Source: Sulfitobacter sp.
GTDB lineage: Bacteria; Pseudomonadota; Alphaproteobacteria; Rhodobacterales; Rhodobacteraceae
NCBI RefSeq assembly: GCF_039977885.1
Contig: NZ_JBDWCI010000001.1
Span: 10,435-74,434, forward strand
DNA: 64,000 nucleotides
Direction of reading: 5' to 3'
The position numbers were made by a program, and so were the translations under genes. Position 1 is the stretch's first letter. Every line of letters starts with the position of its first letter. Shown one piece after another: positions 4,790-47,399 of the stretch. The notes under the pieces were generated by a model that was not told the origin of the DNA, made no database searches, and was given only the letters and a program-made list of their open reading frames with translations.

Positions 4790-4926
4790 GCAACTGATCT
4801 GATAACTGCCGGAAATTGGCGCCTAATTGCTCAAAATATGGCGAAAACAGCGCGATTGTTCACACGACTGCTTTACGTGCGTTGGTAGCTTTGACATGCT
4901 GGACACAATATACTGTGGGGGCGTCA

Positions 4927-6327
4927 ATGAAACTTAACAAGATAGCGACGATTGTATTCATCTTGGGGACGGTCAGTGCCGGTGCATTATCCGCACAGAC
5001 GCGCCCCGGAAGCCAGCCTGCGGAGTTCCCGCCGGCCTCTTACCAGGGCAAGCAATATGTTGACAGCGCGGGCTGTGTTTTCATCCGCGCCGGCATTGAT
5101 GGCAATGTCTCATGGGTGCCGCGTGTATCGCGGTCGCGCACAGGGGTCTGCGGTTTTCGCCCGACCTTTGCTAATCAGGTGACCGAGCCGGAGCCGGTTG
5201 CTCCTGTCAAGACTGCCGAAGTGATTGAGATCGCGCCCGAGGCTGTTGCCGCTCCGGTGGCGGTGGCGACACCAAAACCCAAGCCAGCGCCCGCCCGTGT
5301 TGTGAAAAAGGCCGCGCCAAAACCCGCACCCAAAGTTGTGCGCCAGCAGCCTGCGCCGCCCAAGATTGTTGAAAAAGAAGTGCAGCCTGCCCAGCCCGTA
5401 GTCCGTAGGGCAAAGGCACCTGCACCGGCCGAGGCTGCTGCTTGTCGCGGGGCTTCGCCGCTCAGCAGCCAGTATCTGCGCTCGGATAAATTCCCTGTGC
5501 GGTGTGGCCCACAAGATGAGGCTATTGTTGGTGCGCGCATTTCAACCGCACCCGCGCCTCGCGCTGCGGCTCCTGTTAAAACCGCAGCTGCCAAAGCGGC
5601 ACCCCAGCAACAGCCGATCCGCGTGTCGCCCAACCGCCGGATTGTGCCGCGCCATGTGGCAGTCAACCGTGTGAATACGACGAATGTTCAGGTGCCTGCC
5701 GGTTATACAACTGTCTGGACGGATGGCCGTTTGAACCCAAAACGGGCGGAGCAAACATTGGCGGGCCACCGCGCGATGAGCTTGATCTGGACCTCGACTG
5801 TGCCGCGCCGTTTGATCAATCAAGCGGACGGACATGATGTGACGGCCTCTGTTCCGTTGGTGTATCCTTATACGGATTACGCACGGCAACAGCGCGAGCT
5901 GGGTCAGGTGACCATCGTGAAACGCAATGGTCAGACGCTCAAGCGGATCGTGCGCGGCGCAAGCAATGTGGTCCACCCCGAGCCCGGTCAGGCGCGGGTC
6001 GATACGGTTGCGCGCCAGCCAGTCTTCTCAAGCCGGTCTGCCGCACCCAAGGCAACGCCCAAGGTTGCACCCAAACGCGCAGCCCAGCCAAAAGGCGAAG
6101 TAGCGGCGCGCGGATTTGTGCAAGTTGGCAAATTCAACGACAAAGCCTCGGCCCAGCGGCTGGCCAAGAAAGTGCAGCGCATGGGGCTTCCGGTGCGTGT
6201 GGGTGTCCACACCCGCGATGGACAAACCAGCCGTCTTGTCATTGCAGGCCCCTTTGGTGGCGAGCGTGAAGTGAGCAGCGCGATCAAGAAGTTGCGCAGT
6301 GCTGGATATAAGGCGTTTGCACGCTAA
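4927..6327 (+). CDS. Secreted SPOR-domain protein with Pro/Ala-rich linker
   Basis: Signal peptide MKLNKIATIVFILGTVSAGALSA; C-terminal SPOR-like repeat GFVQVGKF...RLVIAGPF...AIKKLRSAGY. Confidence 0.8.
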   Translation: MKLNKIATIVFILGTVSAGALSAQTRPGSQPAEFPPASYQGKQYVDSAGCVFIRAGIDGNVSWVPRVSRSRTGVCGFRPTFANQVTEPEPVAPVKTAEVIEIAPEAVAAPVAVATPKPKPAPARVVKKAAPKPAPKVVRQQPAPPKIVEKEVQPAQPVVRRAKAPAPAEAAACRGASPLSSQYLRSDKFPVRCGPQDEAIVGARISTAPAPRAAAPVKTAAAKAAPQQQPIRVSPNRRIVPRHVAVNRVNTTNVQVPAGYTTVWTDGRLNPKRAEQTLAGHRAMSLIWTSTVPRRLINQADGHDVTASVPLVYPYTDYARQQRELGQVTIVKRNGQTLKRIVRGASNVVHPEPGQARVDTVARQPVFSSRSAAPKATPKVAPKRAAQPKGEVAARGFVQVGKFNDKASAQRLAKKVQRMGLPVRVGVHTRDGQTSRLVIAGPFGGEREVSSAIKKLRSAGYKAFAR

Positions 6328-46135: not shown

Positions 46136-46432
46136 CGCACGCAGGCTTGGAAAAATGCCCGTGCTACCTTAGGCTTACGGGGCGCGCGGCCCGTGAATGA
46201 GCCGAAACGGGATGCTTTTTCGGAGAAAACGCAGAGATCAACTACCATACTATGGCTTTTGAGACGCACAAACACCTTCCTTGGGTGTTTTTGCCCCATT
46301 GAATACCATATCTTGCAGATAAATACTTTTCAGAACCCTTAATTGCCCTTAACGTAGCATCATGTGGAGCTTACGCGTCGACGCAGTGCGCCGGAATATG
46401 GGCTTCGGGGGAACAAAAAAAGGAAAAGAGCT

Positions 46433-47008
46433 GTGGTAAACACACTTTTCAAAACAATGCGGCTGGCAGCAGGGACCGCGCTTGTTGCGGCAATGACCTT
46501 GCAAGGTGCCGCAGCGGTTGCACAAACGAGATCACAAGGCGGCCGCGATGGCGGTCAGTACATTCCGACAATCTGGGTTGACCCTGACGGGTGTGAGCAC
46601 TGGGTTATGGATGACGGTGTCGAAGGCTTTATGACGCCGCACACAAACCGGCAGGGTATTCCGGTCTGTCGCCGTGGCAACGTCTGTGGCGTGATGCAAA
46701 GCGATCAGTTCTTTGCAACCGACAGCGCACGGATTTCCAAAGGCGGGCAGGCGCGCCTGCAAGAGTTCTTCAAGACGAACAAGGCTGTGAGCTATATCAT
46801 CACGGGTCACACCGACAGCCGCGCGTCTGATGAATATAACATGCGTCTTTCGCTGAACCGCGCCAATTCGGTTGCACGGGTGGCACAAGCTTCGGGTGCG
46901 CGTATTGCGGATGTCCGCGGCTATGGTGAACGTCAACCCGCTGCGTCAAACAAGACGGCTAGCGGCATGGCGAAGAACCGTCGCGTTGAAATTATCTGCA
47001 TTAACTAA
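46433..47008 (+). CDS. OmpA-family (peptidoglycan-binding) secreted protein
   Basis: Signal peptide; FATDSA, GHTDSRASDEYNMRLSLNRA, GYGERQP and NRRVEI motifs; GTG start after AGGA. Confidence 0.88.
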   Translation: MVNTLFKTMRLAAGTALVAAMTLQGAAAVAQTRSQGGRDGGQYIPTIWVDPDGCEHWVMDDGVEGFMTPHTNRQGIPVCRRGNVCGVMQSDQFFATDSARISKGGQARLQEFFKTNKAVSYIITGHTDSRASDEYNMRLSLNRANSVARVAQASGARIADVRGYGERQPAASNKTASGMAKNRRVEIICIN

Positions 47009-47020
47009 AGGAACAGGCAT

Positions 47021-47341
47021 ATGAACGTTGTAAAAATCACTACGCTTGTTGCTTTGGCTGGCCTTGTATCGGCCTGCGAAGATTTTCAGGTAAGAGAGCA
47101 AGGCCCCGACAAAACCATCGACCGCGGTATTGATAAAAAACACCTCAGCCAGCTTGAAGCGGGCATCTGGGTTGATCCCAATGGCTGTGATCATTGGATT
47201 ATCGATGATGGCGTCGAGGGCTATTTGTCGGCCCGTCTGGACAAATTCGGCAAGCCGGTTTGCTCTGGCGTCGCGCCGCCCACCCATACGGTTGGCGACT
47301 TCAAGAAAGGTGCCACTGGCATCATCGGCGACCCGATCTGA
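47021..47341 (+). CDS. Small lipoprotein, paralogous to the OmpA N-terminal module
   Basis: Lipobox LVSA-C19; WVDPNGCDHWIIDDGVEG motif. Confidence 0.8.
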   Translation: MNVVKITTLVALAGLVSACEDFQVREQGPDKTIDRGIDKKHLSQLEAGIWVDPNGCDHWIIDDGVEGYLSARLDKFGKPVCSGVAPPTHTVGDFKKGATGIIGDPI

Positions 47342-47362: not shown

Positions 47363-47399
47363 AAAAAGGGCCGGAGTGTTGCACACTGCGGCCCTTTTT
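47363..47399 (+). terminator. Terminator after the OmpA/lipoprotein pair
   Basis: AAAAAGGGCCG...CGGCCCTTTTT. Confidence 0.75.

Follow-up and report, generated by a model that had tools for sequence, protein, structure and literature searches.

The window, a 64,000-nucleotide stretch of Sulfitobacter sp. DNA, carries adjacent genes for an OmpA-family protein and a small lipoprotein, each with one copy of the same two-cysteine module. Functional coupling of the two proteins is supported by their co-occurrence, their adjacency, the persistence of the pair across architectures and the co-variation of the two module copies. The pair is restricted to Rhodobacteraceae, where it is gained or lost as a unit.

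The two genes and their shared module

The OmpA-family gene (46433-47008, + strand) begins with GTG, upstream of which lies AAGGAAAAG, and encodes a Sec-secreted protein of 191 aa without a lipobox or a beta-barrel; its database homologues are also 191 aa long. The signal peptide (46433-46522, +), as read from the sequence, ends in ...AAAVA before QT, suggesting cleavage by a signal peptidase I-type enzyme. There is no Cys at this AVA-QT junction, and the protein has no lipid anchor of its own. Its peptidoglycan-binding OmpA_C domain (46709-46981, +; residues 93-183) carries GHTD and NxxLSxxRA motifs and scores 58.4 bits against PF00691 (Pfam OmpA; gathering cut-off 27.2). The peptidoglycan-contact motifs GHTDSR and YNMRLSLNRANSV are invariant across 38 loci; the domain is intact in sequence, and peptidoglycan binding is predicted. 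A second invariant cysteine pair, Cys85 and Cys189, brackets OmpA_C in the Sec-type proteins of both clades described below and is missing in lipobox-fused relatives. This pair may form a disulfide stapling the N- and C-terminal strands of OmpA_C.

The lipoprotein gene (47021-47341, +) encodes 106 aa with the lipobox LVSA-C19, which fits the bacterial lipoprotein pattern [LVI][ASTVI][GAS]C, and the Cys is invariant in 38 aligned loci. All of its 1978 homologues are named 'hypothetical protein' or 'lipoprotein' in the source. The lipoprotein ends in ...IGDPI and so lacks the C-terminal Lys of Braun lipoprotein (Lpp). Omp10 (NF041251) was rejected as its identity, with 17.2 bits against a cut-off of 100 and the signal peptide alone covered. 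The +2 residue varies among homologues (E, S, T, G, A, D), and as Alphaproteobacteria have no established code for lipoprotein sorting, the anchor could be in the inner membrane.

The first-pass annotation had described the genes as 12 nt apart and served by one common terminator, and both details hold. The OmpA stop codon TAA occupies 47006-47008, the lipoprotein ATG starts at 47021, and the 12-nt intergenic spacer (47009-47020, +) contains the ribosome-binding site AGGAA and no terminator. The intrinsic terminator, a strong one (47368-47399, +), lies 3' of the lipoprotein gene and consists of GGGCCGGAGTGT-TGC-ACACTGCGGCCC followed by TTTTT, a 12-bp stem with 11 pairs whose inner part was found by the scan. 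The two genes probably form one operon, with co-transcription deduced from their 12-nt separation and lone terminator. Between miaB and the OmpA gene lies a 297-nt leader (46136-46432) whose G+C dips to 45-48%; a scan of this leader and the unit gave no Rfam match and no sigma-70-like promoter. Base composition is unremarkable and gives no hint of recent transfer.

The OmpA-type module copy lies at 46565-46678 (+), with its core WVDPDGCEHWVMDDGVEGFMTPHTNRQGIPVC at 46574-46669 and cysteines at Cys54 and Cys79. The lipoprotein-type copy lies at 47159-47272 (+), with its core WVDPNGCDHWIIDDGVEGYLSARLDKFGKPVC at 47168-47263 and cysteines at Cys56 and Cys81. These cores sit exactly where they had first been placed, and the gap-free alignment, equal Cys spacing and DNA similarity reported at that stage were all reproduced: 18 of 32 residues are identical, 24 residues separate the cysteines in both copies, and 62 of 96 nt match. 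BLASTP of one whole protein against the other gives an E of 5e-17, far beyond chance. Only 13 of the 32 third codon positions are identical, which points to an old duplication under purifying selection and not to a recent conversion. The window's own genome contains just two strong module copies, these two.

The lipoprotein had been said to consist largely of the module, which overstates its share: the module accounts for 32-38 of the 88 mature residues (Cys19-Ile106), with conserved motifs on both flanks. These are GPDKxxDRGxDxKxLSQLxAG before the module (residues 27-47) and GDFKxG...GDP[IL] after it (84-106); both are modelled at lower confidence than the module itself and might be a binding site for a third partner. 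The proposed small beta fold was borne out by AlphaFold2, which, given the mature lipoprotein and a diverse 56-sequence alignment, predicts a three-stranded sheet (strands at 30-33, 39-44 and 49-53 in mature-protein numbering; core pLDDT ~95) between disordered N- and C-terminal ends. Conserved module residues are W, D, H, DDG and EG. Because both cysteines are invariant and periplasmic, a Cys-Cys disulfide is likely in each module.

The module matches no named family, and the first reading had recognised none: nothing in Pfam or NCBIfam reaches threshold, and neither sequence nor fold has a match in the PDB. NCBIfam matches are confined to the OmpA_C part and lie far under every equivalog cut-off. 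Against PDB sequences, the module profile finds only 9-residue matches to repeats in designed propellers, and the best Foldseek hit of the AlphaFold2 model in the PDB has an E of 1.5. The nearest candidate, DUF6440 (PF20037), shows a weak local likeness that spans the whole module (best E 0.0026; 7 of 21 modules). It was rejected at 12.5-13.5 bits against a gathering cut-off of 26.5, and the function of that family is itself not known.

Distribution and architecture of the pair

When the module profile was searched against 1.84 billion representative proteins, only 253 clusters were found at E <= 0.001. The profile searches of Pfam and of Rhodobacteraceae, which had been suggested as a check, returned no characterised domain and placed the module in 132 of 201 sampled Rhodobacteraceae genera; the remaining 69 have no match in whole genomes. 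Exactly two matches, ~600 bp apart, occur in 128 of the module-bearing genera, and four have one. The module is absent from ~397 other alphaproteobacterial genomes. In one genus with a single match (locus L092; G116:C10), the reading frame of the OmpA gene ahead of the lipoprotein is open from OmpA_C only and spans 81 aa, and the module region of that gene may have been frameshifted, lost or misassembled.

In the window, the unit lies between miaB and phoH-ybeY-corC-lnt. The order miaB-ompA-lipoprotein-phoH-ybeY is kept wherever the contig reaches among 80 related loci, drawn from Sulfitobacter, Roseovarius, Roseobacter, Thalassococcus, Roseivivax, Pelagimonas, Tateyamaria and others, with spacers between the two genes of mostly 8-20 nt. 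No tol or enzyme genes are linked to the pair at the loci examined. In genera without the pair, miaB adjoins phoH. A different gene fills the miaB-phoH gap in two such genera (L219:2078-2851, - strand; L225:2165-3178, + strand), and its product looks like an outer-membrane beta-barrel, with a signal peptide and a C-terminal ...YQF or ...IRF. Envelope genes may insert at this site unusually often.

The module is nearly invariant in ~80 loci of the roseobacter group, where identity over the remainder of each protein is 60-70%. Some module residues are fixed across genera yet differ between the paralogues (NGCDHWII versus DGCEHWVM). A second, divergent clade, which includes Rhodobacter, Gemmobacter, Cypionkella, Tabrizicola and Pseudorhodobacter, keeps the pair with altered modules: that of the OmpA protein reads WVDDDGCMHWWADGG and that of the lipoprotein AYDPDGCQ[GN]WIIDDG.

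Beyond the standard arrangement, metagenomic relatives contain two to three tandem modules per protein, with or without OmpA_C (P0241, P0243, P0244), or join a lipobox, one or more modules and OmpA_C in a single polypeptide (P0324, P0341, P0245). P0245 fuses its lipobox to a lipoprotein-type module, another module and OmpA_C, and P0341 is followed by a 74-aa gene. At L083, outside the miaB-phoH site, the gene order is reversed: the gene for an 80-aa module lipoprotein comes first and shares 4 nt with the start of that for a three-module OmpA protein. At L188, a two-module OmpA protein adjoins miaB and is followed by a 97-aa module lipoprotein. At L187, each of two neighbouring lipoproteins combines a module with OmpA_C, one module being of the OmpA type and the other of the lipoprotein type. 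The two-type pair is kept in every variant with readable neighbouring sequence. What L083, L187 and L188 have in common is that the two module types sit in adjacent genes, one of each, and that a lipid anchor and an OmpA_C domain are each present at least once.

A possible distant copy of the module, YVDSAGC-x24-C, is found in the window at 5056-5151 (+), where it forms the N-terminal part of the SPOR-domain protein encoded at 4924-6327. The likeness is weak and stands outside our core claim: profile-profile comparison of this segment with the module (hhalign) gives a probability of 60% and an E of 8e-5. The protein begins QYVDSAGC-x24-C, and this N-terminal motif is kept in 54 of 81 sampled genera with the consensus PAEFPPxSYxGxQYVDSxGCVFIRAG..G.V.WVPRV.R.R...CG. 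Across 80 genera, the SPOR motif and the pair are both present in 46 and both missing in 24, while three have the pair only and seven the SPOR motif only.

Co-variation between the modules

We followed co-variation on a MiaB+PhoH tree of 163 loci and 324 branches, placing changes by parsimony and counting those on the same branch. Column 27 of the OmpA module and column 25 of the lipoprotein module change 21 and 22 times, respectively, and 11 of these changes fall on the same branch (hypergeometric p 2e-9); four are independent events of T>V with A>Q. The best p among ~18,000 inter-protein control column pairs is 8e-7, and none of 138 controls with like numbers of change exceeds 8 co-changes. 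The OmpA_C domain lies physically between the two modules, so its columns control for block transfer of the cassette; their best p is 1.4e-5. Pairs under 1e-4 make up 2.8% of the module-versus-module comparisons, against 0-0.35% of the inter-protein controls. These results are evidence that the modules co-evolve beyond their shared history, and co-variation of this kind does not by itself prove contact.

The co-varying positions map to the end of strand 3 and to the residues immediately following. It is speculation, but the two sheets could pair along their edges, an arrangement with which these positions would agree. We also ran AlphaFold2 on both proteins as one read-through chain, for which the paired alignment was obtained by translating through the stop codon between the in-frame genes at 38 loci. 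This fusion run gave low confidence with its 38 paired sequences (mean pLDDT 58; modules 43-59).

Possible roles at the cell envelope

We infer a model, comprising the disulfides, the membrane involved, the heterodimer and the tethering role, in which the operon would encode a two-subunit envelope complex. One subunit would be the small lipid-anchored protein, held in a membrane, and the other the soluble periplasmic protein, whose OmpA_C would bind peptidoglycan non-covalently. Each would contribute one homologous three-stranded beta module of ~35 residues, probably closed by its Cys-Cys disulfide. The copies, by now distinct as lipoprotein-type and OmpA-type modules, would bind each other as a pseudo-symmetric heterodimer and so join the membrane anchor to the wall-binding domain, forming a split Pal-like link specific to Rhodobacteraceae. 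We give roughly even chances to such a heterodimer acting through its modules as a two-piece link from membrane to peptidoglycan. Joining an anchor to a wall-binder cannot be the sole purpose of the module, as both partners at L187 have an anchor and OmpA_C of their own. In addition, the window's genome has 11 further OmpA_C matches, one of them under the Pfam cut-off, and the structural need for another tether is not evident.

Among known systems, the pair most resembles Pal in function. Pal likewise combines a lipid anchor with an OmpA_C that binds peptidoglycan non-covalently, as the fusions P0324, P0341 and P0245 do in one chain. In the window pair, however, anchor and wall-binding domain are on two polypeptides, and each protein has an extra two-cysteine module that is absent in Pal. 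The first-pass annotation had spoken of an undescribed route, a description that is fair for the module, although the overall logic resembles that of Pal. The OmpA-family protein itself was rejected as Pal: it scores 59.9 against 125.35 for TIGR02802 and 36.5 against 261 for NF008067, it lacks a lipobox of its own, and its gene is not linked to tol genes. The best NCBIfam matches, all through OmpA_C, are lipoproteins of the YiaD, YfiB and PA1041 types (92, 69 and 79 bits), far under their cut-offs of 175, 128 and 250. These, too, are small proteins of the envelope in which an N-terminal accessory segment precedes OmpA_C, but the window protein lacks a lipobox and a glycine zipper, and its accessory region is the new module.

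The modules could instead bind a ligand, either peptidoglycan or another envelope glycan or a metal ion coordinated by the cluster of conserved Asp, Glu and His residues, with both proteins acting side by side on one ligand and not on each other. We consider this rather unlikely. Tandem arrays of two to three modules in one chain, as in LysM-like repeats, would suit it, as would the conserved W, D, H, DDG and EG residues and the fact that both partners can have their own anchor and OmpA_C. If the segment before the SPOR domain is a distant copy, the module would repeatedly accompany wall-binding domains. Even the co-variation could reflect adaptation to a shared ligand, but the co-varying positions differ between the copies (27 versus 25), which fits contact better than a common ligand. 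Against ligand binding, too, each module type has its own fixed residues, the two types stand next to each other at all examined loci that have sequence to either side, and the module has no likeness to a known glycan- or metal-binding fold.

We think it quite improbable that the pair, instead of bearing load as a tether, acts as a heteromeric scaffold or regulator in wall remodelling or division and positions transpeptidases or hydrolases, as has been proposed for DalA (RSP_1200) of Rhodobacter sphaeroides. DalA is an outer-membrane lipoprotein of Rhodobacterales with links to peptidoglycan and to the integrity of the envelope; it binds peptidoglycan itself and is present in 93% of Rhodobacterales and also in Terrabacteria (PMC10470522). 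Rhodobacterales-specific lipoproteins with such roles exist (PMC10470522), and the conserved lipoprotein motifs outside the module could bind third parties. DalA, however, is a different protein from the window lipoprotein, with a different and wider distribution, and the pair has no linked enzyme gene. The phyletic pattern of the pair overlaps that of the SPOR-protein module, an overlap confounded by phylogeny. An 'OmpA family protein', RSP_1033, co-precipitates with DalA in R. sphaeroides (PMC10470522); we rejected it as an orthologue of the OmpA partner, since it adjoins the atp genes RSP_1035-39 with no sign of orthology, and nothing ties it to the pair. That the two proteins are now independent products of an old duplication, adjacent merely for historical reasons, is very hard to sustain. 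Tandem duplication often yields adjacent paralogues, and the low third-codon identity would agree with it, but 197 of 201 genera have either two matches or none, the pairing survives relocation and reversal of gene order, and the co-variation stands above all inter-protein controls.

To our knowledge, attachment of the outer membrane to the wall is well understood in only a few model bacteria, through Lpp, Pal and OmpA, and we know of no Lpp in Rhodobacteraceae, a family that includes abundant marine roseobacters and the Rhodobacter models. In some Alphaproteobacteria, covalently linked beta-barrels hold the outer membrane to the wall. The unit described here centres on a domain without a name, a structure or a literature, and with ~2,000 lipoproteins now labelled 'hypothetical', the module deserves a family entry. 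If the modules dock as in the heterodimer model, the unit would be a compact, genetically tractable example of a Pal-like tether split in two, and the module a new small domain for protein-protein interaction whose specificity variants occur naturally. We tentatively suggest, as a possibility that falls short of probable, that the two-cysteine module is an undescribed, Rhodobacteraceae-specific heterodimerisation mini-domain, with which envelope proteins are built from lipid anchors, OmpA_C and perhaps SPOR domains. If so, the mini-domain would give these bacteria a separate, non-covalent route for coupling membrane and wall.
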